64,000 bases of DNA from a virus, in the IMG/VR virus record IMGVR_UViG_3300021400_000020, positions 1 through 64,000 of that record, one strand, 5' to 3'. Below are positions 18,257 through 50,251 of the stretch, in pieces. The notes beneath the pieces are model-generated. The model was given only the letters and a program-made list of their open reading frames with translations. It was not told the DNA's origin and made no database searches. How positions within the stretch are numbered: position 1 is the stretch's first letter; each line of letters begins with the position of its first letter. Position numbers and translations under genes: made by a program.

Positions 18257-18261
18257 CTCCC

Positions 18262-34803: not shown

Positions 34804-35490
34804 ATGAAAAAAGTATTCGATTCCATTAACCTTGACATTCCTGAAGTGGAATCCTTTATCGAAGAACAAGGTCTTTCGTTCGTATGTAATGACAAGATGC
34901 AGGTGGAAGCATCAGAAGAGGATTTTGAAACCCTCTTGGAACGTTTCCCTTTCATCGACTATGTGGAAGCAGAAGAAAAATCCTTGCAAGATATTGCAGA
35001 CGAGAATGACTTGTTAGTCGTTGAAACAACCAGCTCGCGCAATGGTTACCCATCGAATCTACGTAAGGCAATCACAGGATTCAGCGGCTTTGAAGAAGCA
35101 AAACGTATTGCAAGTGAGAACGGACTGACACTTGTCTGGCTTGATTTGCGTGAAGGTTGGAAACTCTGGCATCGTGGCGACACCGCCACTGAACCGATGA
35201 CCATCACCAGCAACGACTTCGGAGACGACTACAACTTTGAGGACAACAGCGAAGAAATCATGCAGTGTGCTTACGATGTGATAGCAGACTTAGCTAACCA
35301 AGGTGCATCGTTTGACGACATTCGTTCCTACATGGCGAAGGTGGAAAAGATAACAGATGCTATCAAGAAGGCAGACTACCGCCAAGTGGTTGTAACCTAT
35401 AAAGGTGAATACTACGACACCATCGAGGAGCACCCTATCTATTTCCACTTCGATTCCAAGTACACACAACTTGCCGCAATAGAATCATAG
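34804..35490 (+). CDS. Hypothetical acidic protein
   Basis: 228 aa. Confidence 0.7.
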   Translation: MKKVFDSINLDIPEVESFIEEQGLSFVCNDKMQVEASEEDFETLLERFPFIDYVEAEEKSLQDIADENDLLVVETTSSRNGYPSNLRKAITGFSGFEEAKRIASENGLTLVWLDLREGWKLWHRGDTATEPMTITSNDFGDDYNFEDNSEEIMQCAYDVIADLANQGASFDDIRSYMAKVEKITDAIKKADYRQVVVTYKGEYYDTIEEHPIYFHFDSKYTQLAAIES

Positions 35491-35496: not shown

Positions 35497-35524
35497 ATAT
35501 TAACCCCATAAACCCCATTACCCC
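35497..35524 (+). repeat. CCCAT-type tract running into ATG 35525
   Basis: attaaccccataaaccccattaccccATG. Confidence 0.85.
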
Positions 35525-35944
35525 ATGAAAAAAATAATCACCCTGATAGCACTCTTGTGCATCACCATCACACTCTCCGCACAGAACAACAACCCTCGTC
35601 CAGACGACATCTATTCCCTTGCCAATGGTTATAACGAGAAAGTCCAAAAGGAAAAAATCAATCAGGAACGCATGGCGAAAGTAGAAGCCAACAAGAACGC
35701 CATCTTTGCAGCTGGCACAGCACTCAAGTCATCCGCCAACTGGCAATGGGTAGCTTTCGGCAGTGCAGCCGTCGGTGGAGCAACATTAGCCATCGGCTTC
35801 GACCAGAAAGAGGATGCACTGAAAATCGTCGGTTACACCTGCATGGGCTTCGCACTCGTCTCGCAAGTCGTTTCCATCACCAAGAAATACAAGGCAGGAA
35901 AACAACTCCAAATCGGTGCAGGAAAAATTACCTACACCTTCTAA
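35525..35944 (+). CDS. Secreted/membrane hypothetical protein
   Basis: 139 aa. Signal-like MKKIITLIALLCITITLSAQ and two hydrophobic segments near the C-terminus. Confidence 0.7.
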   Translation: MKKIITLIALLCITITLSAQNNNPRPDDIYSLANGYNEKVQKEKINQERMAKVEANKNAIFAAGTALKSSANWQWVAFGSAAVGGATLAIGFDQKEDALKIVGYTCMGFALVSQVVSITKKYKAGKQLQIGAGKITYTF

Positions 35945-36891: not shown

Positions 36892-36956
36892 CCACCGTGC
36901 CCGAAAGTTCTGCTTTCGGGATTCCCATTCATCAACCCCATCAACCCCATTTTCCC
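36892..36956 (+). repeat. Hairpin A + CCCAT tract module
   Basis: Hairpin at 36892-36920. It is followed by attcccattcatcaaccccatcaaccccattttccc, which abuts ATG 36957. Confidence 0.9.
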
Positions 36957-37121
36957 ATGATTCTACTACTTATCATCGGCTCCCTCGTCTCAGCCATTAT
37001 CGACATCCTCTTGAAGAGACGTAACGGCTTCACGACCGAAGAGCAAGCCCTGCTCCAGTCGAACAGCATCAACGAGGACGAACTCCGAGAACTCCGCAAG
37101 AACCTCTCCAACTTCAGGTAA
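36957..37121 (+). CDS. Small membrane protein
   Basis: 54 aa, MILLLIIGSLVSAIIDILLKRR... Flanked on both sides by complete repeat modules, like neighbouring genes. Confidence 0.5.
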   Translation: MILLLIIGSLVSAIIDILLKRRNGFTTEEQALLQSNSINEDELRELRKNLSNFR

Positions 37122-37125
37122 TCCA

Positions 37126-37224
37126 CCACCGTTCCCGAAAGTTCTGCTTTCGGGTATTGTCCTTCTCAGTACCCGAAAGTTCCGCTTTCGGTTCCCCATC
37201 AACCCCATTAACCCCATCAACCCC
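37126..37224 (+). repeat. Full module: hairpin A, box + hairpin A, (AACCCCATY)x3-4
   Basis: Hairpins at 37126-37154 and 37172-37191. At 37194-37224 there are four C4 runs separated by 5 nt, and the last unit forms CCCCATG. Confidence 0.95.
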
Positions 37225-37521
37225 ATGCTTACACTCAACGATATCCGCAAACTGCAAGGTCCAGACTCCGACATCGAATGGACTTGCACCTCCATCAGCG
37301 AGGAACTGTCAGAGACATGCAGGAACTTCTTCACCCTGCCCATCCTCCTCACACTCTTTTTCAAGTTCGAAGTAGAGTGGGAGGGACACCTGCTCGAAAT
37401 GCAGCAGAACGCATCCAACGTAAAGCTGCGACTCGACAACCGAACTGCCACCATCCCCGTCAACACCCGTGGCTACGTCACCTCCTCCGACTACGCTCAA
37501 GCATTTGCCTCCCTTGTCTAA
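37225..37521 (+). CDS. Hypothetical protein
   Basis: 98 aa. Confidence 0.6.
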   Translation: MLTLNDIRKLQGPDSDIEWTCTSISEELSETCRNFFTLPILLTLFFKFEVEWEGHLLEMQQNASNVKLRLDNRTATIPVNTRGYVTSSDYAQAFASLV

Positions 37522-37554
37522 TTCCGTTGTTTCCCTGCAATCCTTTTTCTCTCG

Positions 37555-37619
37555 CCACCGTCCCCGAAAGTTTCGCTTTCGGTCTTTGATTTCTCAGTAC
37601 CCGAAAGTTTTGCTTTCGG
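37555..37619 (+). repeat. Hairpin A x2 at the convergent junction with the tape measure gene
   Basis: Copies at 37555-37582 and 37600-37619 (boxed). Confidence 0.9.
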
Positions 37620-37679
37620 CACAAAAGCGAGGAAGTGACAACAACCGTTGCCACTTCCCTGCTTTTTCGTGTTTGTCAA

Positions 37680-40600
37680 CTATCCTCTACCTCTGCGTTG
37701 CATGAACCTTTCAGCCTTCTTCATCCGCTGACGAACTCCATTGTCGCCATACATGTCCACGTGGGCATCAATGCCAGCTTCCAACTGTGCATGAAGGGCT
37801 TTGAGCATCGCGGTATTCGCGGCAATCAAAGACTGCATACCTTCCATGCTGTCACCACCATCGTCCACCGCTGCACCCGCATCGGTCGTTGTGCCAATCT
37901 CGTCAAGATTGCCATCCGCATAAGTGGCAACACCTCGTTGCTTCCTCCGCTTCGGATAGTTAGGAATGACACCCGTCTTACTGAGCACTTGAATGTTGTC
38001 CCAGATTTCAGGGTAGTTCAGAACCAGCTTCTGCGTCGTTGGTCCATCAATCACGGCTTCAGGCATCTTCTCTGAGAAGATACCATAATGCGCACCACCT
38101 CGGTAAATCTTCGTCTGTAGCTTGTCCTCGCGCTTAGCCATGTAAGTCTCACCATCTGCACCCAACACAGGATAACGACCTTCAGCATAGGTGAGGAAAC
38201 CTGCTTTCAACTGTCCCGAACTGGCTCCCGTGGCAGCGGCTACCTCGCTCTTGCTCTTATTGATAGCACCTAAAGCGAGTCCTAACAGCGAACTCAAAGC
38301 AAGACTGATGGCAGCACCGATGGCGAGACCCAGCCAGCCTTTCTTGGCAACTTCTTGCGATGTTCCTTTTATGCCACCAACGGCTGCTTCTGCCGTGCTC
38401 GTACTGCCTTCCACTTCCAGCTCGGCAATCTTCTTAGCACCGTAGTCCGCTAAGCTCTTTTGACGAAGGGCTTGTATCTGCGTTTGCTTCTGCGCTTCAA
38501 GTTGCACCTCCATCTGGTCCACCGTGCGCTTGGTGCTGACTTGTATCAGATACTGCTGAACCAAGTTCTTGGTCGTCGTCAACACGTCGGTCAACAACTG
38601 CTTGGCGGCATTCTGGCGGTCTTCCTTGCTACCAAATACACCCTCGCCGAAACTCTGGGCAAAACTGCTCATCTCATTGCTGTATTCCTGCAAGGTGTCG
38701 AAGTCTCGTGCTGCACGCTCCACCATCTTCTGCATATACTTCTCTTGCAAATCGGTCATGGCAGTGTAGCTGTCACTCAGAGCGATATTCTGCTCCTCCT
38801 GCAACTCCCTCACCGACATCTGCAAGCTGGCGCGACGTGCCTCTAACGACTGAATCTCGTTCTCGGCTGCCTTGCGCTCTTCGTCGGACATAGAACTGCT
38901 GCGACGGGCATAGTCCAACTCCTTGGCGGCAAGACGGGCAGTCGTCTCGGCTTCCTGAGCCTTCATGTTCTCGATGTGCTTGTCTGTCTCCTGCTGCAAG
39001 AGGGCGATATAGGCTTTCTTGGCTTCCATCTGAGCATAAATCACGTCTATCTCAGCATTGGCGGAAACCAACTCACCACCAAAGCCCCAACTGCTGGCAT
39101 AGTTCGCGGCAGTCTGCCCCGACTGGCTTCTGCGCTCTCGGTCTTCGGCTAACTCGCTCTGAGTCCTGCCACCAAGTCCCTCTTCCCTGCGACCTGTCCA
39201 AATCTTGTCAGCCACACGGGTGTACTCCTTGGCTGCCTTGCGCTCGGCATCGATGATGTCGTCGGAATACTGCTGGAGCTTCTGAAGAAAGGCGGTCAAC
39301 TCGGCATCGGCATTGTCTCCTAAGCCCTCAAACCACACGTGGTAGATATTATCCTCCTTGCGCATGGCTTCTTTCAGCTGCTCGATGGTCAGGGAATAGG
39401 CATCCCTCGCCCATGTCTGCAACTGCGCCAGACGCTTCTCGGCTAATGCCTTCGTGCGCTCCTCGGCTTCTTCGTTGATACCGAAGATAAAACCGATGGT
39501 GTCCATCGACCGACGAAACTCTTCACGCACCTTGCCGGTGAAGTCACCCTCAAGAAGTATCTTCTCGATGGCATCCTTGTGCTTGTGAATAATCTCCTGT
39601 ATCTTGGTAGCATCCTCCTGCATCTTACGGGTGGCTCCGTCATACTCACTGCGCACATCATACATGAACTTCTGAATCAGGCTCCAATTCGCCTTTCTCA
39701 ACTTCAGTTCATTGTTCCAGTGCTCCACAAACTGCTTGCTCTCCGTGGCGTTGAGCTGCTTCGTCCACTGCTTTCTCAACTTCATCCTGTCAGCCAACCA
39801 GACAAGTTCATTCTCGTTGTTCCTGCGCTCGGCTTCCTCCTCGGTAATGGATTCCTCGGCTAACCGCTGCTTGATAAGGGCTTCACGCTCCTGGTAGTAG
39901 GCATCCAACTGCGCGAGAGTGGCATCACGCTCGTCTTTTGCCTCACGCTTCCATTTGTCCTTGTCACGATCGCTATTCTTGTCACTCTTATAGTTGCCTT
40001 GAATTGTGTCGTGGCGACGGTCAAGCTCTGCCTTCACCTTGTCATACTCTTCCTTCACACTTCTCTGAGCATCCTCCATGCTCATACTGTCATCAAGCAC
40101 TCCCTTCTTCACGAGGTCGGCATAAATCTTGCTGAATTGCTGCCCCACTTTCAAGCCGTTCTCAACCACGCTGTCCAGATAATCAGCATAGTTCTTCAAG
40201 GTCTCGGTATCCATTTTGTCAAGGGTGGTACCATTCTTTCCCCATACATTCGGATGGGCAATGTCCTCCCACTGATTACGTACCTGTCCTTGCAGATAGC
40301 GGTTGTTGTTCTCCACACGCTGAAGCACCTGACCGCTCATCCGTGGACCTGCCTGATGAGCAAGGTTCTGATAGTCGGCTGAGAGTTCAACGAGACGCTG
40401 GGCTAACTGCTGACGTTCTTTCTTGTCGGTACTGCCATTGAACTGCTTCTGCAAGTTCTGAATCTCCTTGAGGGTGCTATTCAGCATCTTCAAGGTGTCT
40501 TGGTAGCTACGGGTGACAGCTTCGTCCATCTGAGCACCTGTACTCTCTGCAAGACGCACACGCTCACCACGCTCCTTCACAAGGTCGTTCCACAACTTCT

Positions 40601-43600
40601 TGATGTCGTCGAAATTATCATAGATGGCATCCTTGGCAGTCTTGTTCAGCTTCAAGCCACTCTGCGTAATGAGATATTCCATCATGTTACCTTGACGCAT
40701 GTTCTGAACGCCCCAGTTGTCCTGGCTGTTTTTCAACTCCGACTTAGGAAGGGCATCCACCAGTCGCTGCATCGTCCTACGAAGCGCACTCTCAATGACA
40801 CTCGTATTGCGGTCGCCTACTTCCTCGGTCAACTTGTCGCGCACGCCCGTCCAACGGTTTTCACGAGTCGTTCCATACTTCTCTTCCAACAGCTTTTCAG
40901 CGGCTTCCTGCTTCTTCAGCACGATAGTTTCACGAATCTTGCTGTTCAGGAGGTCACGGGCTTGCGTCTGGTTCTTTAATAGGTTCGTCTCGCTAAGTTG
41001 AAAACCGAGGTAGCTCTGCATCACGCCATTTAAGTCGTTAATCGTCTTCTTCAACTCTCGATGGCTATCTACATTCTGCTCATTGTTCTTGGTGAGCTGG
41101 GAAATACGATCCGAGAGTTGACGACTCTTTGCAATCATCTCGTCCTCCTCCTTGGCGGCGGCAGCGATGGCTTCGTTAAACTCCTTTGTGGCTTCTACTC
41201 CCTTGCGGATGTACTGAATCAACTTAATGATACCATCAAGCACAGCGAATACAATAAAGGTCTTGAGTGCCGACTTCAATCCTTCTATCGCCACCTTGAA
41301 TGTCTGTGCAGCTCCTTGGGCTGCAACCAGCCGCTGCCAGAACTGCTTGAGGGCTCTGCTACCATGTTCCAAGGCTTGACGAAACTTCGTGCCGATATTC
41401 AACTGAAGGGAAATCAACGTAAGAATAAGCGCCTTGATGGTGGATTGCCACGAGACGATACTCTGAGAACCTTTCTGCATCCACGAAAGGAAATTGCCCA
41501 AGCCCTTGATGATACCATTGAAGAAGTCATAGATAACACTGTTGGTAAACAGCTCATTGAAGGCATTTCTCAGTCGGGCAAGACTACCTGCGGCATTATC
41601 CTGCACCTTCGTGAACTCACGCGACATCACACTCACATTGCCCATACCGACGGTGGCACTCTCATAACCCTCACTGGCATACTGCAAGGCATCACCCAAG
41701 GCAGCGGTATTTGTCGCCAGAGAACTGAGCGTCATCGCCAGTCCTGCACTCTGTTTCATGCGTCCTGTACCCACGGCATTCATCACCTCCTGCACCTTAC
41801 CTGCCCTGTCTTCGGCATCCTCAATCTTTTCCAACACGGCAACCAAGGCTTCATAGCTCTTGCCCTCGTCAATCAGACTTTGCAGATAGGTAGGAGCCAG
41901 CTCTGCGGCTTTCGCCATCTCGAAGGTGTGGTTCATCACGCCACGAATCAAGTGTATCAAGGCGGTACTGCCCTGCTCTGCACTGATACCGACGGCATCC
42001 AAACGTCCTCCCAAGGCAATCAGTTGGGGCATGGTCATCTTGGCTGTAGCACCCACTGCGCCAAGTCTTCTCACGTACTCCATGATACCCTGATAGCTGG
42101 CGGCGGTATTGTTACCGAGGTTCAGAATGGAACTACCTGCGGCATCCAAGGCTTCGCCAACATCGTCACCATGTTTTTTCGTCTCACCCAGCACGTCATT
42201 CACCTTTGCCAGTCCTGCAATGGCTTCCGCTCCACCAATATCTTCACCAAGGGTGGCATTGATACGTTCACCCATCTCCACGAAACCCTTCATGCCTTCA
42301 AGCCCATGCTCGGTATAGATACCTAACTTACCTGCTTGCGTGGCAAACTCCATCAGGTCGTGGGTGGTGGTGCGGGTGTCGAGGTCCTGCAAGCTCTTCG
42401 ACAAGCGGCGCACCTCCTCAGTCGTCATGTTCGTTACCTTCTGCACATTCGTCATCTGGTCACTGAGTTCCATGATATGCCCGAACTGCTTGCGTACCTC
42501 GTTCATGATGGCATTGAAGCCCAGATAGACGGCGATATAGCTTTTGAGTCGGTTGATGGCGCCACGAATACCACTTTGATGATGTGTCCAAGTTTCTGTC
42601 AACTCCTTCATCTGCTTGTCAATGGCTTTCATCTGCGCCGCCTTCGCTATATACTCGTCCTGCGTCAGTTCTGTATTGTTGATTTCGAATTTCAGACGCT
42701 TATACGCCATCCTCAATTCGTCGATATTCTTCACACCCTTTGGGTTTTTAAGAATTTCATCAAACCGCTCGGCAGTCAAGGTGGCAGTCTCCTGCAACAT
42801 GTCGAGACGCTGTAACTCGCGCTCAACGGCAATGATTTTTTCTTGTCCGTCCTTGCTCGTCACGTCAAGCGTACTCTTATAGGCACGGAGTCCATTGCGT
42901 AAGCGGTCGAGGTCGGTCAACGTACCCTTGAAGCCATTGCCGCTGTTCACATTCTCCAAGTATTTCTTGGCTTCCAGCACACGGTCATTGGCTTGCTGCA
43001 AGTCGGCAGTCATCTTGCGGATAGTTTCATCAACCCTCGATAAACCTCCCTCATTGGTGGTCTCCAAGTTCTCCCTGTACTGCTGCAAGAGCTTGATATT
43101 CTCCTGAATCTTGGTGGTACTCTGCGACCCCGATGTGTAGTTCATCGCTTGCTGGGCTTTGTCTTCCAACGAGGTCTGCGCACGATGCTGGATGGTGTCG
43201 TTGATGGCTTCCAACTGGTTCTTCACCCGCTCAAGCACCCGCTCTTCCATGTTTCCGGCATCCACCATGCCCTGCAAGAAACGTTGCACATCCGACAACT
43301 GCTTGTCGGTGGCGTTGCCGATGTCGGCAAGGACATTTCCTCCACCTGTCTTCATCCAGTTACTGAACTTAACGCTGTTGATGCGCTTCTCATAAATCGC
43401 CCATTGCGATTGGGTCTTGGCAAGGGTCTGCTGCTCCTGCTTCAGCACCTCAATCACACGCAAATTCGTGGCAACACTGTTGTTGGAGGCGTTCTCGCTG
43501 GTTTGCCAGACAGATTGAAAACCTGCCTTCAGTTCGTTCAAGCGGTTCTTGATGAGCTGCATCACCTCCGACTTACGGGCAAACTCCTCGGCGGAAACGC

Positions 43601-44957
43601 CCGACTTCTGAACCTCGAAACTCAGACGCTCGTAGGCTTGCTCCAACTCCTTCACACTGCGCCAACTCCTTGGGTCGCCGACAATCTCACGGTAATGCTC
43701 GGCGGTCAGCGAAGCGGTCTTTTCCAGCACCGTCAGACGTTGGAACTCCTCTTCCACACGGGCAATCTCCTTCACACCATCGTCCGTGGTGGCATCGATG
43801 GTTTTGCGGTATTCGGTTAAGCCCGTCTTCAGCCGCTCAATGTCCTTCACACTGTTGGCAAAACCCGAACCACCCTCGGCAATACTGCTAATATGCCCTT
43901 TGGCTTCCAAAATGCGCTCGTTGGCTTGCTGCAAGTCGGCGGTCATCTTGCGGATGGTCTCGTCCACACGCATCAAGCTACTGGCGTCAGTCGTTGCCAG
44001 ACTCTCCCTGTACTGCTGCAAGAGTTTGATGCTCTCCTGCAACTGGGTACTGTTCAAACCTGTGGTTGGAGGAGCACCTGCGGCACTCAATGCCTGACGT
44101 GCGGCGGTAGCTTGCTCATAGCTCTGCATGATACCACCAGCCCGCTCGCTCAGCGAGGTCTGAGCACGCTGCTGAATGGTGTCGTTCACACTTTGCAAAC
44201 TGGCTTTGACCTTTTCAAGCACCTTGGCTTCCAGATTGCCTGCATCCACCATACCCTGCAAGAAACGCTGCATATCCGACAGCTGCTTGTCGGTGGCGGC
44301 ACTCAGGTCCTTCAAGAGGGTGTCACCACCTGCCTTCTTGAAATTCTCAAAGGTGATGGCGTTGATGCGTTGGGTAATCTTCGTCCACTCCTTGCTGTTC
44401 TTCGACAAGACGTCGCGCTGCTCGGTCAAGACACGCTTCAGACGCTCGTTTTCATCAAGACTACCCTTCGTATAGTTGCTGCTCTGCTTCCAAGCATCGG
44501 CAAATCCAGCCTTCAATTCCTTAATGCGCACCTCTAACTGGGAAATATGGTTGGCTAACCGACGGAAAGACTCCATGTCCTCGTCGGTCATCGTACTCTT
44601 GCCAAATTTGCGCATCTCGTTCCTCGCCTGACTTAATGCCGTGGTCAGGTCGCGCACCGACATGCCCGTCATATTCGTCAGACTCTCTTGCAGACGGTTT
44701 AGATTCTCACGGCTCTGCTTGATAAGGCGGTTCTGCGTCTTGAGTTGTTCCTCCGTTTGTTTCATCTGCACCTGTAAGTCCTTTCCCTTAGTTCCTGCCT
44801 TCTCTGCTTCGCTAAGGGACTCGTACTGCGCTTGGAGACTCTTCAGTTCTTCCTCCAACTTATGAGCGGTATCGGTCAGCAACTTAATCTGCTTGTTAGA
44901 TTCCTTCGTCGTAACATGCACCTGCACATTACTCACATAACTTGATATTCCTGGCAT
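37680..44957 (-). CDS. Tail tape measure protein
   Basis: 2425 aa, mostly coiled-coil. Central ...VTNMTTEEVRRLSKSLQDL...AGKLGI... core, hydrophobic segments, and position within a virion gene block. Confidence 0.85.
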   Translation of the reverse strand: MPGISSYVSNVQVHVTTKESNKQIKLLTDTAHKLEEELKSLQAQYESLSEAEKAGTKGKDLQVQMKQTEEQLKTQNRLIKQSRENLNRLQESLTNMTGMSVRDLTTALSQARNEMRKFGKSTMTDEDMESFRRLANHISQLEVRIKELKAGFADAWKQSSNYTKGSLDENERLKRVLTEQRDVLSKNSKEWTKITQRINAITFENFKKAGGDTLLKDLSAATDKQLSDMQRFLQGMVDAGNLEAKVLEKVKASLQSVNDTIQQRAQTSLSERAGGIMQSYEQATAARQALSAAGAPPTTGLNSTQLQESIKLLQQYRESLATTDASSLMRVDETIRKMTADLQQANERILEAKGHISSIAEGGSGFANSVKDIERLKTGLTEYRKTIDATTDDGVKEIARVEEEFQRLTVLEKTASLTAEHYREIVGDPRSWRSVKELEQAYERLSFEVQKSGVSAEEFARKSEVMQLIKNRLNELKAGFQSVWQTSENASNNSVATNLRVIEVLKQEQQTLAKTQSQWAIYEKRINSVKFSNWMKTGGGNVLADIGNATDKQLSDVQRFLQGMVDAGNMEERVLERVKNQLEAINDTIQHRAQTSLEDKAQQAMNYTSGSQSTTKIQENIKLLQQYRENLETTNEGGLSRVDETIRKMTADLQQANDRVLEAKKYLENVNSGNGFKGTLTDLDRLRNGLRAYKSTLDVTSKDGQEKIIAVERELQRLDMLQETATLTAERFDEILKNPKGVKNIDELRMAYKRLKFEINNTELTQDEYIAKAAQMKAIDKQMKELTETWTHHQSGIRGAINRLKSYIAVYLGFNAIMNEVRKQFGHIMELSDQMTNVQKVTNMTTEEVRRLSKSLQDLDTRTTTHDLMEFATQAGKLGIYTEHGLEGMKGFVEMGERINATLGEDIGGAEAIAGLAKVNDVLGETKKHGDDVGEALDAAGSSILNLGNNTAASYQGIMEYVRRLGAVGATAKMTMPQLIALGGRLDAVGISAEQGSTALIHLIRGVMNHTFEMAKAAELAPTYLQSLIDEGKSYEALVAVLEKIEDAEDRAGKVQEVMNAVGTGRMKQSAGLAMTLSSLATNTAALGDALQYASEGYESATVGMGNVSVMSREFTKVQDNAAGSLARLRNAFNELFTNSVIYDFFNGIIKGLGNFLSWMQKGSQSIVSWQSTIKALILTLISLQLNIGTKFRQALEHGSRALKQFWQRLVAAQGAAQTFKVAIEGLKSALKTFIVFAVLDGIIKLIQYIRKGVEATKEFNEAIAAAAKEEDEMIAKSRQLSDRISQLTKNNEQNVDSHRELKKTINDLNGVMQSYLGFQLSETNLLKNQTQARDLLNSKIRETIVLKKQEAAEKLLEEKYGTTRENRWTGVRDKLTEEVGDRNTSVIESALRRTMQRLVDALPKSELKNSQDNWGVQNMRQGNMMEYLITQSGLKLNKTAKDAIYDNFDDIKKLWNDLVKERGERVRLAESTGAQMDEAVTRSYQDTLKMLNSTLKEIQNLQKQFNGSTDKKERQQLAQRLVELSADYQNLAHQAGPRMSGQVLQRVENNNRYLQGQVRNQWEDIAHPNVWGKNGTTLDKMDTETLKNYADYLDSVVENGLKVGQQFSKIYADLVKKGVLDDSMSMEDAQRSVKEEYDKVKAELDRRHDTIQGNYKSDKNSDRDKDKWKREAKDERDATLAQLDAYYQEREALIKQRLAEESITEEEAERRNNENELVWLADRMKLRKQWTKQLNATESKQFVEHWNNELKLRKANWSLIQKFMYDVRSEYDGATRKMQEDATKIQEIIHKHKDAIEKILLEGDFTGKVREEFRRSMDTIGFIFGINEEAEERTKALAEKRLAQLQTWARDAYSLTIEQLKEAMRKEDNIYHVWFEGLGDNADAELTAFLQKLQQYSDDIIDAERKAAKEYTRVADKIWTGRREEGLGGRTQSELAEDRERRSQSGQTAANYASSWGFGGELVSANAEIDVIYAQMEAKKAYIALLQQETDKHIENMKAQEAETTARLAAKELDYARRSSSMSDEERKAAENEIQSLEARRASLQMSVRELQEEQNIALSDSYTAMTDLQEKYMQKMVERAARDFDTLQEYSNEMSSFAQSFGEGVFGSKEDRQNAAKQLLTDVLTTTKNLVQQYLIQVSTKRTVDQMEVQLEAQKQTQIQALRQKSLADYGAKKIAELEVEGSTSTAEAAVGGIKGTSQEVAKKGWLGLAIGAAISLALSSLLGLALGAINKSKSEVAAATGASSGQLKAGFLTYAEGRYPVLGADGETYMAKREDKLQTKIYRGGAHYGIFSEKMPEAVIDGPTTQKLVLNYPEIWDNIQVLSKTGVIPNYPKRRKQRGVATYADGNLDEIGTTTDAGAAVDDGGDSMEGMQSLIAANTAMLKALHAQLEAGIDAHVDMYGDNGVRQRMKKAERFMQRRGRG
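42530..44520 (-). repeat. About 1-kb in-frame tandem duplication inside the tape measure gene
   Basis: ELKAGF...LSDMQRFLQGMVDAGNLE...IKLLQQYRESL...ETIRKMTADLQQANERILEAK is repeated about 335 aa later as ELKAGF...LSDVQRFLQGMVDAGNME...IKLLQQYRENL...ETIRKMTADLQQANDRVLEAK. Boundaries are approximate. Confidence 0.8.
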
Positions 44958-45021: not shown

Positions 45022-45545
45022 GTCCAGTTCCTCGTCGTCTGACGCTTGTAGCCATTGCTACGGAGGAACTGTCCTTGTGTGGTGGCATTCGCCACACTCT
45101 GCATGATGACAACACTGCCCGTATAAGCATACTGCCGAGCAAGCCTATCCATCAGCATCCTGGCGTGAAGACGAATTTCACTCATCATAAACGGCTTCGC
45201 CATACGAGGCTTGCCGTCAGGACGAGGGATAGGTCTGAGCGGCTTACCCGTCGTCAGCTGGGGAATAGTCATGTATTTCATGCCCTTGCCAACCGCCATC
45301 TCCACATACTGAGCATAGTTCATGTAATAAAACTGAATCAGGGCTTCGTCACCATTCGCATTGTTGTGGATGTCGGCATGGATGCTGCGCTCCAAGTCAC
45401 CCGAAAACTTTTTGCCGTAGGGACTAATCTCTAAGTCCTGCATGTTCTGAAGAATCTGCTCCGTCGTTTCAAGGGCGAAATAATGAATGCGTTGCTGAAC
45501 CTTTTTGTTCATCAACGCAAATTCATCTATCACTTGCTTTGCCAT
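45018..45545 (-). CDS. Hypothetical virion protein, possibly HK97 gp10-like (start moved to ATG 45545)
   Basis: 175 aa. ...GDLERSIHADI...YYMNYAQYVEMAVGKG pattern. A -7 box lies 18 nt upstream. Confidence 0.5.
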   Translation of the reverse strand: MAKQVIDEFALMNKKVQQRIHYFALETTEQILQNMQDLEISPYGKKFSGDLERSIHADIHNNANGDEALIQFYYMNYAQYVEMAVGKGMKYMTIPQLTTGKPLRPIPRPDGKPRMAKPFMMSEIRLHARMLMDRLARQYAYTGSVVIMQSVANATTQGQFLRSNGYKRQTTRNWT

Positions 45546-45562
45546 CGTAATTCCTTTTCTCG

Positions 45563-45570
45563 CAAAGTTA
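45563..45570 (-). promoter_or_regulatory. -7 box TAACTTTG (minus strand)
   Basis: caaagtta on the + strand, 18 nt upstream of ATG 45545. Confidence 0.55.
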
Positions 45571-45630
45571 GTGATAGACAACCAAAATCATAAGGACAAA
45601 TTTCTTAGTCATCCCTGTCTTTCTCCGTAT

Positions 45631-46012
45631 GCGAAAGTTCCGCTTTCGCCTTTCATCCTCCCCCGAAAGTTCTGCTTTCGGTCCTTAGTTTCTCCGTATC
45701 TGAAAGCTCTGCTTTCAGCCATCAAAGAAACAAGGTTTCCACGCTCTCGTGAAAACCTTGAACTTTTGAGTCTCAATTCACGCAAAAAAATTGAAACTCC
45801 ATCTTTAAATCATGGCAAAGATACGACTTTCATCGTTCCCCTCAAAATCTTTCCGTCAATTTCTGCACCACCGTCCACGAAAGTTCCTGCCACCGTTCCC
45901 GAAAGTTCCTGCCACCGTTCCCGAAAGTTCCGCTTTCGGGTAAAAAGAAAGTTCCGCTTTCGGTTTAGCTTTCAGCCCTTGCTTTCTCCGTACCCGAAAG
46001 TTCCGCTTTCGG
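45631..46012 (+). repeat. Dense pile-up of hairpin-A elements and fragments
   Basis: Copies at 45631-45649 (GCGAAAG variant), 45660-45681, 45700-45718 (CTGAAAG variant), 45912-45940, 45946-45963 (degenerate) and 45993-46012. Half-units of 22 bp at 45868-45889 and 45890-45911. Confidence 0.9.
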
Positions 46013-46014
46013 CT

Positions 46015-46560
46015 TCAGTCCTCCTCTCCGAACAGCATCCCGTTCACATACTCATCCTCCACCACGCAGATATTGTACTGTTCCGGCAGATGAATCGTCA
46101 GATACACTGCCACCCATCCGTCATAAAACGGAGCTTGCGTCTTGTACTCTATATCACTAAAGTCCATCCTGCGAAGGAACTTCGGACAGCGTTGCTTATC
46201 ATGCTGCAACTTGTTCAGCCAGTTCAGGAAATTGCGCATGTGTTCCTTGGCTTCTTTCTTCGCATCCCTATTCGCGTGACCGTCACCTGCGTCCGTACTT
46301 CGCACACAGAAGTGGATGGTAAAACTCTGCTTGTCGTAGGCAAACTGCTCTATCTCGCCCTCCAGGTTACTCTCCATGATGACACACGGACTCATCCGCA
46401 CGTTCATTCCCTGCATAAAGTTCTGCAGGTCCCAGTAACTGTTGCAGAAATAAAACCTACGACGTTCGGAATTCTTGGCGAAGTTATGTTGCATCTTCTT
46501 ATAGATGCTACACCAGAACTCTACTAACTGAGGATAGTCACTGACTTCACTTAATTTCAT
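46015..46560 (-). CDS. Hypothetical virion-block protein (start moved to ATG 46560)
   Basis: 181 aa. Confidence 0.65.
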   Translation of the reverse strand: MKLSEVSDYPQLVEFWCSIYKKMQHNFAKNSERRRFYFCNSYWDLQNFMQGMNVRMSPCVIMESNLEGEIEQFAYDKQSFTIHFCVRSTDAGDGHANRDAKKEAKEHMRNFLNWLNKLQHDKQRCPKFLRRMDFSDIEYKTQAPFYDGWVAVYLTIHLPEQYNICVVEDEYVNGMLFGEED

Positions 46561-46734
46561 GTTTTCGTTATTGTTTTCGTTATCGTTCAAGAAATCCCTT
46601 CAAATCCTTTAAATCCTTGATTTTTATCTACGGAGTCTCGGAGTAAAGGAATTTCCTGTTTCCGTTTTCGTTATCGTTATCGTCCAAGAAATCCTTTCAA
46701 ATCCTTAAAATCCCTGACCTCTTTAAATCCCTGA
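46561..46734 (+). repeat. Dispersed repeat, copy 2 (see 1-125)
   Basis: Two AAATCCTT-rich blocks (46588-46626 and 46685-46734), each preceded by (CGTTWTC)-type short repeats. Confidence 0.7.
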
Positions 46735-47295: not shown

Positions 47296-48417
47296 TTAAA
47301 ATCGTCTAACACCCTTCACGAAAGGAGCAAAGACACTGTTGCATGGGTTCTTAGGGTCGTAGTCATTGGAAGGAGGACAGTGCTTAGGGCATTGCTGCTG
47401 TCTGTTCAGACGCTTCTGCTCTTCTTCTGGCAACGCATTCCCGTCCTCGTCATACCACAAGCCGTCATCACCGAGGGTGGGAGGTGCTGGCACATAGAGA
47501 GGAGAGGTTTTCACGTAAGGGCGGAAAGAATCCTGATGTGCGACGATACACCTCTTGGCTAAGGCAAGCTGCATGTCTCCACGCTCCACACTGTCCTTGC
47601 GACCCTCGCCCGAAAGGGATTCAGCATAGCGCACCAACGCACGACGTAGGTAATTCTTTGCTTTCTTGCGCCAGATATAATGTTCCACCTGACTTGCTGC
47701 ATCCTCACCATCATTCCCATCCGACCCATTATCCCCATCATGCCACTCATGAACAAAAGCAGAAAACAACTCCTCACCGATGGCTGGTTCCAGATATACG
47801 CTCTGAGCCTCCTGAAGATTCGGGAACATCTCAATGAACTGCTTCCTGCCATCCTTCAGAGTCGTGTAGTTTCTGAGTTCATGGGCTGTCGTAAATAGCA
47901 AGTCAGCCTTATAGTAGAAGAACTCGCTTTCCTTCCATTCTGTCTGATACAACGGTTCTTTAGACTCCGCATCCAACTCTAAAAGGGTCAGCAAATTGTC
48001 CTCGCTTTGCCGCGCTTTACGCCAAGCATCACGCTCGAAGCGGTCCAAGGCTTTCTGCTCTGCCGATTCGTAGTAGTCTGCAGACATCTGATTAAAACCA
48101 CCTCCCTCATTGAAACTCAACGCATACACACCTGCATTGTCTGCCAACGTGTAGTAGAGGGCGATGCGCTGACACTGGCGGAGAATCCTGATATTCAAGT
48201 CTCTGTTATTGAATGTGGCGTTTGTCAAGCCTGTGTCCTGCAAGTTCTCCACAAGACTGTCATACTCGGTGGCGAGCTTATCCAACAAGGCATCACCCAA
48301 GAGGGGCGTGAGGCGGACATTCACTTCATTGTCGATGTCACTAATCAAGCGGTCGAGGTTCGTCCACTTACTCTGAGGATAGATAGCTTCTATCTCTTTG
48401 ATATTACAGAAAAACAT
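47296..48417 (-). CDS. Hypothetical virion-block protein
   Basis: 373 aa, preceded by the heptad leader repeat. Confidence 0.7.
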   Translation of the reverse strand: MFFCNIKEIEAIYPQSKWTNLDRLISDIDNEVNVRLTPLLGDALLDKLATEYDSLVENLQDTGLTNATFNNRDLNIRILRQCQRIALYYTLADNAGVYALSFNEGGGFNQMSADYYESAEQKALDRFERDAWRKARQSEDNLLTLLELDAESKEPLYQTEWKESEFFYYKADLLFTTAHELRNYTTLKDGRKQFIEMFPNLQEAQSVYLEPAIGEELFSAFVHEWHDGDNGSDGNDGEDAASQVEHYIWRKKAKNYLRRALVRYAESLSGEGRKDSVERGDMQLALAKRCIVAHQDSFRPYVKTSPLYVPAPPTLGDDGLWYDEDGNALPEEEQKRLNRQQQCPKHCPPSNDYDPKNPCNSVFAPFVKGVRRF

Positions 48418-48428
48418 ATTTCATTCTA

Positions 48429-48463
48429 TTTTTCACTTTTCACTCTTCACTTTTCACTTTTTA
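48429..48463 (-). repeat. Heptad leader repeat (GTGARAA)x4
   Basis: Minus strand reads gtgaaaa gtgaaga gtgaaaa gtgaaaa, about 12 nt upstream of ATG 48417. Confidence 0.85.
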
Positions 48464-50227
48464 TTTGCTCTCCGTTGATACAACCCCCGTCTTGCTGTTG
48501 TCCAGCGTCGTGAGGTTCTGCTGTTCTATCACCCATTTCAAGTGCTTGTCACAGTCATTGAAGGTGGAAATCATGTCCAAGAGCCATAGGTAACGACGCT
48601 GACTTGGACTCACCTGCTGCTCCTTCAGCAAATGCAACTCACGCTGGAACGTGCCTCCCTTACCAGAACTACCAGGACGTGAGCCGATCAGTTCGGGATG
48701 AACACCCATTGCAAAGAAGATGATACTGCTCACTTCCTCCAACTCGGCTTTTAAGTCCTTGGCGTTCTGAGGTTGTGGCACATCTACAATCTCAATCGAC
48801 TTCACGAGCGTCTTCTCATCTTGGCTCAGATAGGCATCCAATGCAACGGTCTTACCGTTATTGTCGCGCTTCTTCAGGAATTGGTTGATGTCGTTAATCA
48901 GACCCGTCTTGATAGCATCCTGCTCGTCCTCGTTCGTCGCTCCCATCTGGTCGTAGAGTTTCTGAAGGTAGTTGAGATTGATGTAGATGATTTTTCCCCA
49001 CATCGTAGAGTTGTTCCTCGCCGCTGCCTTGTCGAACATCATTGTATAGGCATAGTTATACACATAGCTCAGGAAGATACTCCACCACATAGGCTGTGGA
49101 TAGTAAGGGCGGAGTATGTTCGCACGTTTCAGAGGGATGCAGAACCATGCCGTGCGCTCATTCACCTTCTGACGTTGTTGACGCGATACCCACGAATTCA
49201 ATTCTTCAATGGCACTGTCGGAATTGATGACAGGGTAGGCGATGACCTCGCCAAATTGCAAGTCGGGAGTGCATTCCTTGCGCCAACGCTCGGCATAGAA
49301 GACATTCTCAATCTTCAAGTCCTTGCTCATCTCCTCGTAACGGGTGCAGACACAAGGCAGAAAACCGAGTTTCACAATCTTAGGATTCCACTTGCCGCTC
49401 TTACCTCGCGACAAGCCAATCGTAGGAAAGGCGATGTTCATGTGGGCATCGTCAGTACAATACTTCTCATAATGCTCACAGAGATTGTTGTTCTCAAGGA
49501 ACTCACGAAGCCATTGACTTGTGCTTTCCCATTTTTCATAGTCTTTGACAAGCTGATCGATTTCCTTGTCAAGGTACTCTTTGAGACGAGTATGCTTGCC
49601 ACCCTTACGCGGACCTTCCTCGCCACCGTTCCCGAAAATTTGGTTTTCGGGTAAAAGGTTACCGTTCCCGAAGGTTCTGCCTTCGGATTCCCCGTTCACC
49701 CCATCATCCTGCGACTCATCATCATCCAAGGCATCTCGTCGTGAAGATAACTCTATAAGTCTATTCAGAATCAGCGTACCAGCAAGAGGGTAGGGGATGC
49801 TCTCTTCCTTGACCGTCCCTCCAGCGTATCGTGCCCATACGTAAGTGGGTTTGGGACCATGCCCTTGCGTGAGGTTGATGATGTATTCCATAGCAGCAGC
49901 AGTGTAGGGGAGGGCTGCCACTAACTGCGCAATCCTGTTCGGCTGGTCGTTGGCACTGCCCCAGGCGATATACTTGCCTTTGACGGTCTTGCTATCCACA
50001 CTGATTGCCTGTATTTGCTTACCGTCGGGAATGAGGTTGCTGCCCGTACCAAGCATCGACTTGTTCGCCCATTCCGCGCAGCCACTCACCACCGAAGGGT
50101 CGTTATTCTTGCTGTTGCCAAACCCTGTCACCGTGATGGGAATATAACCACGTTTCTGCAAGCTCTGAATCTTGCTGAAGGCTTTATCAACGGTTTTTTT
50201 AAACTGATTCTTCTGATTCTTTGCCAT
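48461..50227 (-). CDS. Portal-like protein (tentative) with embedded repeat module
   Basis: 588 aa, first gene of the minus-strand virion block, with a -7 box 25 nt upstream. The portal call rests on size and position only. Residues ...GRTFGNGNLLPENQIFGNGG... are encoded by two hairpin-A copies. Confidence 0.45.
   Translation of the reverse strand: MAKNQKNQFKKTVDKAFSKIQSLQKRGYIPITVTGFGNSKNNDPSVVSGCAEWANKSMLGTGSNLIPDGKQIQAISVDSKTVKGKYIAWGSANDQPNRIAQLVAALPYTAAAMEYIINLTQGHGPKPTYVWARYAGGTVKEESIPYPLAGTLILNRLIELSSRRDALDDDESQDDGVNGESEGRTFGNGNLLPENQIFGNGGEEGPRKGGKHTRLKEYLDKEIDQLVKDYEKWESTSQWLREFLENNNLCEHYEKYCTDDAHMNIAFPTIGLSRGKSGKWNPKIVKLGFLPCVCTRYEEMSKDLKIENVFYAERWRKECTPDLQFGEVIAYPVINSDSAIEELNSWVSRQQRQKVNERTAWFCIPLKRANILRPYYPQPMWWSIFLSYVYNYAYTMMFDKAAARNNSTMWGKIIYINLNYLQKLYDQMGATNEDEQDAIKTGLINDINQFLKKRDNNGKTVALDAYLSQDEKTLVKSIEIVDVPQPQNAKDLKAELEEVSSIIFFAMGVHPELIGSRPGSSGKGGTFQRELHLLKEQQVSPSQRRYLWLLDMISTFNDCDKHLKWVIEQQNLTTLDNSKTGVVSTESK
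49623..49686 (+). repeat. Two hairpin-A variants inside the portal-like CDS
   Basis: 49623-49651 (CCCGAAAA-tttgg-TTTTCGGG) and 49660-49686 (CCGAAGG-ttctg-CCTTCGG). Followed by caccccatcatcc. Confidence 0.9.
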
Positions 50228-50251
50228 GATGATTTGTTTTCGTTACTTAGG

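Follow-up and report, generated by a model that had tools for sequence, protein, structure and literature searches.

In Cluster K mycobacteriophages, the start-associated sequence (SAS) consists of one 13-bp unit (GGGATAGGAGCCC) with the Shine-Dalgarno (SD) core AGGAG, located 3-7 bp from the start codon (Pope et al. 2011, PMC3203893). It is short and asymmetric, occurs nearly always in one orientation a few nucleotides from a preferentially ATG start, precedes non-structural genes of different families and is conserved across subclusters; about half of the sites show an inverted repeat (ESAS) upstream, for which RNA hairpins were judged unlikely (PMC3203893). For Bacteroidia, initiation regions of low structure and AUG depletion have been described (Baez et al. 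2019, PMC6847099; Jha et al. 2021, PMC7797042), along with an A-rich, Kozak-like rule, i.e., adenine at -3, -6, -12 and -13 and reduced structure from about -20 to +20 (PMC6847099; PMC7797042). For start codon choice in Bacteroidia without SD pairing, the only known determinants (low structure and a few upstream adenines) are weak. Known hairpins include REP-type extragenic palindromes and, between the early genes of T7, those of RNase III processing. Furthermore, promoter-early stem-loops (PeSL), i.e., mobile regulatory cassettes of T4-type phages carrying an early promoter, were reportedly described by Arbiol et al. in 2010.

Here, we analysed a window of 64,000 nt (positions 1 to 64,000 of IMG/VR record IMGVR_UViG_3300021400_000020), whose source is a tailed Bacteroidales phage, probably Prevotella-type and of the rumen. 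It contains a C-rich 9-mer, AACCCCATY, in short tandem copies directly 5' of the start codons of about 11 small phage genes (Table 1). When strict tracts are defined by at least two tandem units, each matching at least 7/9 positions with a mean of at least 8, the window holds eight on the + strand and none on the - strand, compared to 0.015 on average and at most 1 in 200 dinucleotide-preserving shuffles. Including weaker ones, n=11 tracts are found, again all on +. All eight strict tracts end at -3 to +30 nt from a + strand start, most of them at 0-13 nt, while only 2.35% of the window positions are that close to a + start. That is, the start association and strand specificity that had been suggested for the tract are confirmed, and all ten sites of the original prediction were recovered, among them the five CCCATG starts in which the ATG replaces the last unit's ATY (14180, 18332, 35525, 36957, 37225). 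Beyond these ten, a weak eleventh site consists of a hairpin, tcaaaacaacccatcaaca and the ATG at 60114. For all sites, the annotated frame of the tract-led ORF has the best coding score among the six frames (for the eleventh site, the 60114 frame).

Table 1. Tandem-repeat leaders and hairpin elements in the window.
Position	Strand	Feature	Context
1621..1654	+	C-rich tract, 3-4 units	30-nt spacer (A-rich, without G) up to ATG 1685
13957..14140	+	cassette portion 5' of the tract: GCCACCRTTCC + hairpin CCGAAAG-TTCYG-CTTTCGG as a 38-nt unit in four tandem copies, followed by TTTCTCAGTA box and fifth hairpin	
14149..14182	+	tract AATCCCATT AACCCCATC AACCCCATC ACCCATG	5' of ORF 14180..15595
18257..18334	+	longest tract, 6 good units (8 by looser definition), ends CCCATG	occupies 75-nt gap between 17321..18256 and 18332..18685
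35502..35527	+	tract AACCCCATA AACCCCATT ACCCCATG	most of 34-nt gap between ORFs 34804..35490 and 35525..35944; without hairpin
36934..36959	+	tract AACCCCATC AACCCCATT TTCCCATG	runs into start of 54-aa ORF 36957..37121
37122..37191	+	hairpin, CTTCTCAGTA box, second hairpin	directly 5' of tract 37192..37227
37192..37227	+	tract TTCCCCATC AACCCCATT AACCCCATC AACCCCATG, 4 units in exact 9-nt register	last unit AACCCCATG gives start codon (final ATG) of ORF 37225..37521; predicted fully unpaired
37551..37620	+	hairpin-box-hairpin as at 37122..37191	after the operon's last + gene; no tract, no + gene next
44973-45021	-	(GTGAAAA)n, second copy	5' of gene 37680..44957
46561..46620	-	(AACGAW)n and (GGATTTNAA)n tandem repeats	run into ATG of minus-strand gene (~46015..46560)
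48418..48460	-	(GTGAAAA)n, C-free tandem leader	occupies gap 5' of minus-strand gene 47296..48417
55540..55632	+	two hairpin copies in methyltransferase 5' UTR	3' of host-type promoter 55463; then leader that is A-rich, not C-rich, and ATG 55633
57555..57671	+	two hairpins, TTTCTCCGTA box, second hairpin CCTCTCGGCTCAGCCGAGAG	upstream of tract 57672..57703
57672..57703	+	tract AAAACCATT AACCCCATA AACCCCAAA AACAA	5' of ATG 57704
59491..59520	+	tract AAACCCATT AACCCCATC AACCAAAAAACT	5' of ATG 59521
60096..60113	+	weak single-unit leader tcaaaacaacccatcaaca	from hairpin to ATG 60114, which is the actual start within listed ORF 59979..60755
60835..60864	+	tract AACCCCATT AACCCCATC + C10 + ATC	5' of ATG 60865; hypervariable among relatives
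61878..61904	+	tract CACCCCATT ATCCCCGTC AACCCAATG	occupies 26-nt gap 5' of ORF 61902..62324

The tract is always found on the coding strand and in the part of the intergenic space that is next to the ATG, with 1-9 units and a distance of 0-30 nt between last unit and ATG. Within the arrays of the whole family, the unit spacing is 9 nt in 50/63 steps, and the CCCAY core is substituted in only one internal unit while unit positions 1-3 and 9 vary; 11/27 family sites end in a unit-phase CCCATG. A tract-like array antisense to a minus-strand gene (47713-47739) turned out to be ordinary coding sequence (HDGDNGSDGNDGED). It had also been proposed that the 9-nt register keeps upstream ATY triplets in frame with the ATG. 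This holds for 37225 and 60865, as claimed, and in addition for 1685, 59521 and 61902, but fails at 14180, 18332, 35525, 36957 and 57704. Since about half of the sites are out of frame, the in-frame register is not a property of the element, and a slippage-neutral N-terminal extension by in-frame ATY was discarded for the same reason. Extension through the tract is further contradicted by the lack of a canonical start codon upstream and by the 60865 start, where five relatives share an identical N-terminus while the indels 5' of it (C10, C7, none) are not multiples of 3.

The original prediction likened the tract to the Cluster K SAS. The likeness holds for position, orientation, copy number (roughly 11-19 copies per genome) and closeness to the start, with a putative role in both cases, as well as for upstream inverted repeats, since hairpins precede 8/11 tract sites, albeit with sequences unrelated to ESAS. 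Family membership does not hold. The 13-bp consensus has no match in the window with up to 2 mismatches on either strand; the AGGAG core that pairs with the 16S 3' end is absent from the tract sites, and no purine-rich GGAGG-like SD motif was found 5-10 nt upstream of their starts. Instead of a single SD-bearing unit, we observe 1-9 tandem G-free 9-mers that often include the start codon. Furthermore, SAS hosts are SD-using Actinobacteria whereas Bacteroidales are SD-blind, and the hairpins upstream of the tract are predicted to fold strongly while those of ESAS are considered unlikely. The tract is thus analogous to the SAS but not a member of it.

The tract had been considered a plausible dedicated leader element, which agrees with its start association; however, it is not stand-alone but one module of a composite intergenic cassette. 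The order within the cassette is fixed, i.e., stop codon, GCCACCGTYCC plus hairpin (1-5 copies), TTTCTCMGTA box, second hairpin, tract and ATG. Where hairpins occur, the tract is on their ATG side and never between stop codon and hairpins, and hairpin-box-hairpin units without a following + gene have no tract. The arrangement at 57555..57671 recurs at 59374-59490 and 60756-60834. Overall, the window holds 28 hairpin copies, all in the same orientation. A search with the 28-nt hairpin pattern yields 26 genome loci, nearly all of them Bacteroidales and some between housekeeping genes, i.e., the element is also present in Prevotella and Bacteroidales chromosomes. As an imperfect extragenic palindrome that is multi-copy and common to the host chromosome, the hairpin part resembles REP elements; as for REP and T7 hairpins, the copies follow stop codons in tandem and change in number (e.g., 2+1 copies in the 98% relative L049 at the 13957..14140 element). 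In contrast to these, all 28 copies point in one direction and each has the conserved 11-nt 5' flank GCCACCGTYCC. Being common to phage and host chromosomes, this flank and hairpin form a second undescribed intergenic element that merits its own study. A role as strong intrinsic terminator is unlikely, given that two copies are placed between the methyltransferase promoter and its ATG, in a 5' UTR whose hairpins are conserved in L081 and L082, and that the stems are not followed by a T-run. Rfam gave no match at gathering score within the whole window and only chance-level matches (E up to 5) within 36850-37680; known RNA families and tRNAs were not found. The sequence of box and second hairpin also occurs inside a gene as an in-frame 51-nt repeat.

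Similar to PeSL, repeated stem-loop cassettes flank small accessory ORFs in variable regions, with gene content shifting at the boundaries (here, the 61902 slot and an extra gene in L048). In contrast to PeSL, no host-type promoter (TAnnTTTG or TTTG) is found in or next to any tract cassette, and PeSL have no counterpart of the C-rich repeat. The tract itself was therefore rejected as a host-type promoter, also because three tracts lie within intercistronic gaps of 26-75 nt. Specifically, little or nothing besides the tract is left in the gaps that separate co-directional ORFs at 35525 (34 nt), 61902 (26 nt) and 18332 (75 nt), which implies that these tracts should be on the mRNA. For 35525, a host-type promoter is located upstream at 34741.

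We also compared the region -40..-1 of the 11 tract sites with that of 48 other starts. The tract sites contain 0-5 G and 10-25 C per 40 nt, with no G at all in 6/11 cases. None of them has an upstream ATG, which is present at 16/48 other starts, and the SD-like 4-mers GGAG, GAGG and AGGA are absent from -17..-4 at 11/11 sites. Near absence of SD-like motifs, together with TAnnTTTG host-type promoters, fits the Bacteroidota-type host that was assumed initially. Averaged over -25..+6, the predicted unpaired probability is 0.77 for tract starts compared to 0.57 for the 48 other starts and 0.48 within genes (Mann-Whitney p = 4e-5), and the tract is predicted to be single-stranded through the start codon. 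Low structure, missing SD and few upstream AUGs are thus shared with the SD-independent initiation regions of Bacteroidia. On the other hand, the phage's other genes follow the A-rich rule (A at -3, -12 and -13 in 30/48, 29/48 and 34/48 cases, respectively) while tract-led starts are C-rich at such positions (C at -3 in 7/11 and at -12 in 6/11 cases), and the Bacteroidia model has neither tandem repetition nor a CCCAY core. By host rules, tract-led starts would be mediocre initiators.

Based on these sequence features, we favour with moderate confidence the reading that (AACCCCATY)n is a 5' or intercistronic mRNA leader, i.e., an SD-independent translation-initiation region of small accessory genes. 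Such a leader would serve a host whose ribosomes do not use SD pairing: 30S subunits may load on the open tract and start at the first AUG, while the hairpins could insulate the tract from upstream structure. The repeat unit may be a degenerate start context (AACCCC-AUG to AACCCC-AUY) that arose by slippage, with the start region being duplicated in tandem and the upstream AUG subsequently lost. Against the leader reading count the violation of the A-rich rule, the missing tract at one L081 ortholog (13848, corresponding to 59521), arrays away from starts, and a hairpin cassette at 50300-50480 between divergent promoters, where no transcript is expected.

Tandem-repeat leaders occur in this phage in several types, of which the C-rich tract is one. 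For the leader reading speak the C-free leaders of the other strand and of L083, which show the same logic. The (GTGAAAA)n leader is longer in L082 and replaced by (CACGAAWWT)x3 in L081, while the (AACGAW)n and (GGATTTNAA)n repeats are the same at the L081 and L082 orthologs. In the unrelated phage L083, whose + strand is G-rich, C-free tandem leaders are located 5' of + genes. The repeat composition tracks the DNA strand skew, i.e., the skew of the respective strand would set which base, G or C, is missing.

Two further readings lie outside translation. Rho-utilisation (rut) sites are unstructured, C-rich and G-poor RNA stretches of about 60-80 nt that precede Rho-dependent 3' ends. By analogy to known rut and nut sites, the tract might load Rho and end transcription into the downstream gene unless its translation or a phage antiterminator acts, with the upstream GCCACCGTYCC and hairpin in a nut-like role. 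The base counts given above, the predicted single-strandedness and the placement 3' of conserved hairpins with conserved 5' flank are compatible with this. Nevertheless, we rate it as very unlikely: most tracts have only 18-36 nt, which is little for a rut site; they directly adjoin the ATG, such that an initiating ribosome would cover them; the minus-strand counterparts are C-free (GTGAAAA)n leaders, which Rho should not bind; and the hairpin also occurs between housekeeping genes of host chromosomes and is therefore not a phage-specific nut site. A DNA-level role, in which at least four C-runs would form an i-motif on the + strand and a G-quadruplex on the template that modulate transcription or replication at gene starts, seems least probable of all. 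While four or more C3+ runs separated by loops of no more than 7 nt occur in several tracts (e.g., 37192-37227, 14149-14182, 18257-18334), the canonical four-run pattern is present in only 12/27 start-adjacent family sites, sites with 1-3 runs are equally well conserved, and the leader repeats of the minus strand lack this potential.

Conservation of the CCCAY core and of its 9-nt spacing is not accounted for by a purely structural role. Since the core is kept at the 9-nt period while other positions drift, some reader of it is probable, and the sequence pattern hints at a specific one. In the leader model, this reader (the ribosome, bS1, or a factor of phage or host) would probably contribute to initiation, which is the most tentative step of the mechanism. 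For a hypothetical pairing of the tract with Bacteroidales 16S rRNA, possible segments would be GAUGGGG or UGGGGU. In a stronger version, which we consider improbable, the reiterated CCCAUY core, spaced by 9 nt and in register into CCCAUG, would be a new sequence-specific, SD-independent ribosome-recruitment signal, i.e., a near-cognate decoy array that captures Bacteroidia 30S subunits directly or via bS1 or a phage factor and feeds the first true AUG. If true, initiation at these starts would follow a code that is private to the phage and differs from the A-rich rule of the host and of other phage genes. In any case, the tract is a compact leader of natural origin and modular build that does not follow the adenine rule, and its conserved, reiterated placement with single-nucleotide precision at about 11 starts despite breaking this rule makes it a ready-made test object. 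If it works, it would provide a portable part for expression in engineered Bacteroides and Prevotella, and an example of slippage creating and tuning translation signals.

The same core conservation is also an argument for a different reading, namely that the tract is an operator or regulon tag. Here, a phage or host factor would bind the reiterated CCCAY core in trans, on RNA or DNA, such that the gene set is co-switched; it could be a translational repressor like T4 RegA or a transcriptional repressor or activator with (AACCCCAUC)4 as candidate target, and unstructuredness would be secondary. Core and 9-nt spacing are kept even where unit positions 1-3 and 9 vary (with G at variable positions in L048 and L081), one unit is used at at least 11 separate loci while other gene sets use GTGAAAA, AACGAW or CACGAAWWT, and tract-led starts depart from the A-rich rule of the other genes. 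The authors of the SAS study weighed the same possibility for their element (PMC3203893). However, we found no candidate binding protein, as downstream and neighbouring genes are without informative domains. Moreover, 1-9 units and 0-30 nt to the ATG are loose for an operator, and the (GTGAAAA)n leader of one gene is swapped for an unrelated repeat in its L081 ortholog, i.e., the repeat identity is replaceable, at least there. We thus regard the operator as a possible but doubtful explanation.

A lack of conservation at orthologous starts had been named as refuting the idea, and the tract passes this test. In relatives of ~80% nucleotide identity, most orthologous starts still have a tract, and the 9-mer copy number varies among related contigs (3 vs. 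8-9 units). L048 has tracts at the orthologs of 14180 (8-9 units) and 18332 (8 units); within the last 35 nt 5' of ATG 14180, the identity between window and L048 is apparently above the ~82% of the flanking DNA. The 57704 tract is kept at the L081 and L082 orthologs, and the 60114 orthologs of both read AAAACCC(C)ATCCTCCCC-ATG. The 59521 tract is kept in L082, L084 and L085 but absent in L081, while the 60865 tract is present in L081, L082, L084 and L085, with CCCCCCATCATGGA found twice at this start in L084 and L085, i.e., a fresh duplication that includes the ATG. Finally, the 61902 tract is present in L081 and L085, and the tract of this slot stays while the downstream gene differs in L081, L084 and L085.

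This mobility could also indicate a neutral by-product that plays no part in expression, i.e., slippage repeats in the intergenic DNA of a strand-skewed genome that were spread by cassette recombination. They would survive near starts as this is where non-coding DNA lies, and would serve at most as homology patches for module exchange. In accordance with this, short tandem repeats of several kinds abound in the genome and track its strand skew, tract-like arrays are found away from any start (L048:50, L081:335, L081:600), the hairpin copy number differs between 98% relatives, the tract outlives its gene at the 61902 slot, L048 has an extra tract-flanked gene, and box and second hairpin have a copy within a gene. 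We nevertheless consider a neutral by-product quite improbable. From neutral slippage, one would expect each locus to have its own amplified sequence rather than one 9-mer at 11 loci, and within arrays the core is conserved while its flanks vary. The tract is always on the ATG side of the hairpins and never on the stop side, AUG is absent from every tract, and the conservation in front of ATG 14180 apparently exceeds that of its flanks.

Regarding the distribution beyond these relatives, two-unit and three-unit patterns match ~45 IMG/VR contigs, mostly within coding low-complexity sequence or as single copies. Among these pattern matches, the unrelated contigs L001, L029, L036 and L040 have a tract just 5' of a long ORF but no multi-locus use. 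The non-syntenic phages L083 and L087, which share the methyltransferase, have no C-rich tract. Searches with protein 14180 in viral contigs and in JGI metagenomes gave no relatives, and neither did a megablast of 20 kb against phage records; a concatenated ten-protein query had no match. The 30-mer of box and second hairpin matched one already known contig in metagenomes, and exact look-ups returned 100% identical contigs only, or nothing. Independent gene calls on the relatives mostly chose the tract-adjacent ATG; exceptions are a second ATG called at the 18332 ortholog of L048, a truncated ORF in L081, a TTG start in L084/L085, and 36957, which is left uncalled in identical contigs.

The repeat at 37192-37227 reads TTCCCCATC AACCCCATT AACCCCATC AACCCCATG, with the last ATG being the start of ORF 37225..37521. 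The original prediction placed C-rich tracts of this kind, i.e., tandem 9-nt units (AACCCCATY)n, at at least ten sites, and a tandem-unit scan indeed recovers ten clear tracts directly 5' of + strand ATGs as well as an eleventh, weaker site (see table). The five reported CCCATG starts, in which the ATG stems from the last unit's CAT plus G, are likewise found. In-frame placement of the ATY triplets with the ATG holds at about half of the sites but not as a general property. Using a strict definition, eight tracts are found, all of them + strand and zero on the opposite one, while 0.015 per genome are expected by chance (dinucleotide-preserving shuffles). All eight end at most 30 nt 5' of a + start, a proximity that applies to 2.35% of positions. 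The annotated frame of the tract-led ORFs is top-ranked in every case by a codon-usage score trained on long genes, the long antisense ORFs 1565..2077, 36990..37454 and 61914..62300 score below them, and gene calling done independently in related contigs settles on the tract-adjacent ATGs in most cases.

Relatives amount to only a handful within the collections searched. Four contigs (L045, L049, L084, L085) show about 98% nucleotide identity to the window and the two ends of a 152.8-kb contig (L048, L081) about 82%, while the methyltransferase of contig L082 is 83% identical to the window's. Tracts are kept at most orthologous starts in these relatives, and additional tract-led genes occur there (L048 13962; L081 16238 and 17935; L082 18126; L085 11522); the tracts are therefore conserved, with one loss, and the original prediction stands up to its own refutation criterion of conservation at orthologous starts. 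The tract is a real, non-random, conserved and start-associated repeat.

Coordinates of tract-led starts, hairpins and other repeats in the window
Feature	Position	Strand	Description
Tract-led ATG	1685	+	clear tract
Tract-led ATG	14180	+	clear; 3 units + ACCCATG; in L048 8-9 units NNNCCCATY ending CCCCCATG
Tract-led ATG	18332	+	clear; tract present in L048, likewise running into CCCATG
Tract-led ATG	35525	+	clear tract
Tract-led ATG	36957	+	clear tract
Tract-led ATG	37225	+	clear tract
Tract-led ATG	57704	+	clear; tract in L082 and L081 (about five unit variants in L081)
Tract-led ATG	59521	+	clear; kept in L082, L084, L085; lost in L081 along with hairpins
Tract-led ATG	60114	+	weaker; hairpin, then tcaaaacaacccatcaaca; single unit after hairpins in all relatives compared
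Tract-led ATG	60865	+	clear; tract in all five contigs
Tract-led ATG	61902	+	clear; tract in L081, L084, L085; not in L082, whose junction is different
Hairpin copies (examples)	1484-1567, 13957-14140, 37122-37191, 45650-46026, 55540-55625		
Hairpin-box-hairpin without tract (examples)	37551-37620, 3940-3990		no + gene next
Two hairpins without tract	7169-7251		no + gene next
(GTGAAAA)n	48418-48460	-	5' of gene 47296..48417
(GTGAAAA)n	44973-45021	-	5' of gene 37680..44957
(AACGAW)n, (GGATTTNAA)n	46561-46620	-	third minus-strand gene; (AACGAW)n runs into the ATG
TTCAAACTT(T)TAAAAYTTTACAWCAAC	19508, 21473, 25451, 28670 (and 13570)		G-free, non-repetitive; abuts these + strand ATGs; kept in L048
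51-nt x 4.3 tandem repeat	6297-6515	-	within gene 6241..7104
Hairpin-dense non-coding regions	45540-46120, 50280-50520	+	
22-nt direct repeat	2214-2326		four copies, GTAAACAAGATGGTAGAATATC-like; upstream of gene 2443..3930
AT-rich 16-mers	546, 4244, 6154, 7126, 7803, 55421		
In-frame 24-nt and 18-nt tandem repeats	21808-21937, 22241-22419		gene 21473..22924; Thr/Glu/Pro-rich peptide repeats
Tract-like array	47713-47739	+	antisense inside minus-strand gene 47296..48417

Within contiguous arrays, the unit step is 9 nt in 50/63 cases. The core CCCAY is substituted in only one internal unit, while positions 1-3 and 9 are free to vary, with G occurring at variable positions in L048 and L081. A neutral repeat or recombination patch would fit a genome that is generally repeat-rich and that also holds tract-like arrays away from starts; we nevertheless consider it a lesser explanation, given the conserved core versus variable flanks, the fixed position on the ATG side and one unit being common to 11 loci. 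Family-wide, the ATG sits at the unit's ATY position in 11/27 start-adjacent sites, such that the 9-nt unit resembles a copied start context with another base in place of the ATG's G. Extra AUGs near starts are avoided in Bacteroidia (PMC6847099). Upstream of the 60865 start, whose N-terminus MEIAIIIAF is identical across five contigs, the C-run is ten in the window, seven in L081 and none in L082; L084 and L085 carry CCCCCCATCATGGA twice, i.e., a tandem duplication including the start codon. The leader may arise and change size through slippage of its start context. At slot 61902, the upstream gene end and the tract are constant while three different downstream genes follow (window, L081, L084/L085), and L048 holds an additional gene with tracts on its flanks. 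Tracts therefore coincide with gene-exchange points.

The tract is the ATG-proximal module of a cassette with the order stop codon, hairpin element copies, TTTCTCMGTA box, second hairpin, tract and ATG. The hairpin element (GCCACCGTYCC plus hairpin CCGAAAG-TTCYG-CTTTCGG) is present in one to five tandem copies, and the second hairpin has either the stem of the first, TGCAGCGGTTTTGCCGCTGC or CCTCTCGGCTCAGCCGAGAG. All 28 hairpin copies in the window share one orientation. Hairpin units without tract are found where no + gene comes next. At 35525, 61902 and 18332, in turn, hairpin-free tracts account for the greater part or the whole of the 34, 26 and 75 nt, respectively, that separate two ORFs of the same direction. 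We therefore assign the hairpins to gene ends and the tract to gene starts. The hairpin is unlikely to be a strong terminator, since two copies lie in the methyltransferase 5' UTR between promoter (55463) and ATG (55633), a pair that is kept in relatives.

The window belongs to the genome of a tailed phage. Phages of Microcystis, Flavobacterium, Cellulophaga and Porphyromonas have terminases that match its large terminase subunit at 29% identity over 91% of the length, and a 2425-aa protein carries a tail tape-measure or minor-tail domain. Further genes are those for DnaB, a DarB-like giant methylase-helicase, PcfJ/PcfK and the YopX family. ENA assemblies contain an identical 97-kb contig and the 152.8-kb relative; their record names suggest rumen samples. 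The host belongs to the Bacteroidales, based on suitably spaced TAnnTTTG(C) promoters 5' of many window genes, the rarity of Shine-Dalgarno (SD)-like motifs in the window, and a 28-nt portion of the intergenic hairpin that is also present in genomes of Prevotella, Leyella, Phocaeicola, Bacteroides and Parabacteroides. In Prevotella/Bacteroidaceae genomes, the GCCACCGTYCC flank and hairpins of differing stems lie between housekeeping genes, with an A-rich leader and then the ATG coming after them. The phage thus arranges its intergenic regions in the style of the host but uses another leader. GCCACCGTYCC with its 7-bp-stem hairpin, common to phage and Bacteroidales chromosomes, appears to be an element of REP-like or 3'-end type that is as yet undescribed.

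The exact 28-mer matches 26 genome loci, about 16 of which are one identical mobile element in many genera; MAGs of Prevotella/Bacteroidaceae carry 1-3 tandem element copies, and chromosomal loci in Bacteroidales include L057, L064, L065, L067 and L076. The 51-nt coding repeat contains the sequence of box and hairpin-2 (CTTCTCCGTATGCAGCGGTTCTGCCGCTGCC) in antisense orientation, and its translation gives 17-aa repeats (DEVDDDGSGRTAAYRKT). The two hairpin-dense regions of the window and L081 200-700, all non-coding and between minus-strand genes or divergent promoters, hold dense + oriented hairpins, boxes and GCCACCGTYCC repeats, and could be an origin, packaging site or regulatory hub. L081 200-700 also contains (TTCGTTATCG)n and C-rich 9-mers with no ORF behind, and the long + ORFs listed in such regions of the window (45505..46527, 50226..50600) have poor coding scores.

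The best-supported explanation of the tract is an mRNA leader acting as an SD-independent translation-initiation region, which we infer from where the tract lies (position, strand and operon context), from its composition and predicted structure, and from its conservation. The 40 nt 5' of tract-led starts contain 0-5 G (zero at six sites), no SD-like 4-mer is present in the leaders of the 11 sites, and an ATG within these 40 nt is found at 0/11 tract sites versus 16/48 other starts. In predicted RNA folds the hairpins form while tract and start codon are open. Over -25..+6, the mean unpaired probability reaches 0.77 at tract starts, as compared with 0.57 at the 48 other starts and 0.48 within genes (p = 4e-5). 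Such a leader would be open, AUG-free and shielded from upstream by the hairpins. Low structure and AUG depletion resemble Bacteroidia initiation regions, but the adenine determinants are missing: the other phage starts follow the Bacteroidia adenine rule (PMC6847099) with A at -3 (30/48), -12 (29/48) and -13 (34/48), whereas tract starts depart from it with C at -3 in 7/11. This departure and the CCCAY core kept at 9-nt spacing argue that something may read the sequence. We therefore retain as main rival a sequence-specific factor for which the tract is a regulon tag or operator, and keep a private ribosome-recruitment code as a possible reading. An i-motif or G-quadruplex ranks lower, being possible at only 12/27 sites.

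Repeats also precede minus-strand genes. The GTGAAAA array is longer in L082, and the L081 ortholog carries (CACGAAWWT)x3 in its place. L083, an unrelated phage with a G-rich + strand that has only the methyltransferase in common with the window, shows C-free (GTGAAAA), (GTAWAAT) and (GGGAGATAR) arrays 5' of three + genes. Several other + genes of the window have the non-repetitive G-free leader TTCAAACTTTTAAAAYTTTACAWCAAC. C-rich and GTGAAAA-type leaders are alike in lacking either G or C beside the start, and which of the two is missing tracks strand skew. The + strand of the window shows C>G along its whole length regardless of gene orientation, third codon positions included (GC skew -0.26 for + genes and +0.16 for - genes on their own coding strand, i.e., C>G on the + strand), which points to a mutational bias that is tied to replication or to the strand and spans at least 64 kb. 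While the composition would also fit a rut site, we rank this below the translation leader, as the tract is short for such a site, would overlap the ribosome footprint, and has C-free counterparts on the other strand.

The closest described feature are the (extended) start-associated sequences (SAS/ESAS) of Cluster K mycobacteriophages (PMC3203893). The likeness extends to placement, orientation, copy number and upstream inverted repeats (PMC3203893) but neither to the sequence, which is unrelated and has no SD core, nor to the array, SAS being single units. The SAS consensus has no match in the window; the tract is a SAS analogue, not a SAS member. Rfam yields no family matches, and our literature search turned up no account of leaders like these from phages of Bacteroidales. 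The tract adds a new form to the known start-associated sequences or translation leaders, with a putative mechanism.

The antisense tract-like array at 47713-47739 reads HDGDNGSDGNDGED on the coding strand, an acidic low-complexity linker that is longer in L081 (cf. L081 2272, L082 2108). GATAGAAT-type motifs recur near minus-strand promoters. L083 and L087, which have the cytosine methyltransferase in common with the window, show GGAGG-like SD motifs at many genes, 6-10 nt away from the start codon; L083 also has a Bacteroidales-type TAACTTTGC promoter, which is odd beside SD motifs if the host ribosome is SD-blind. Finally, five unrelated viral contigs (L036, L051, L001, L029, L040) carry a single (CCCCATCAM)2-4 array just 5' of a long ORF, which could be convergence or chance. 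In L036 (IMG/VR 3300027899_000961, GC 62%), a stop codon is followed by a GC-rich hairpin, four units, 17 nt and the ATG.
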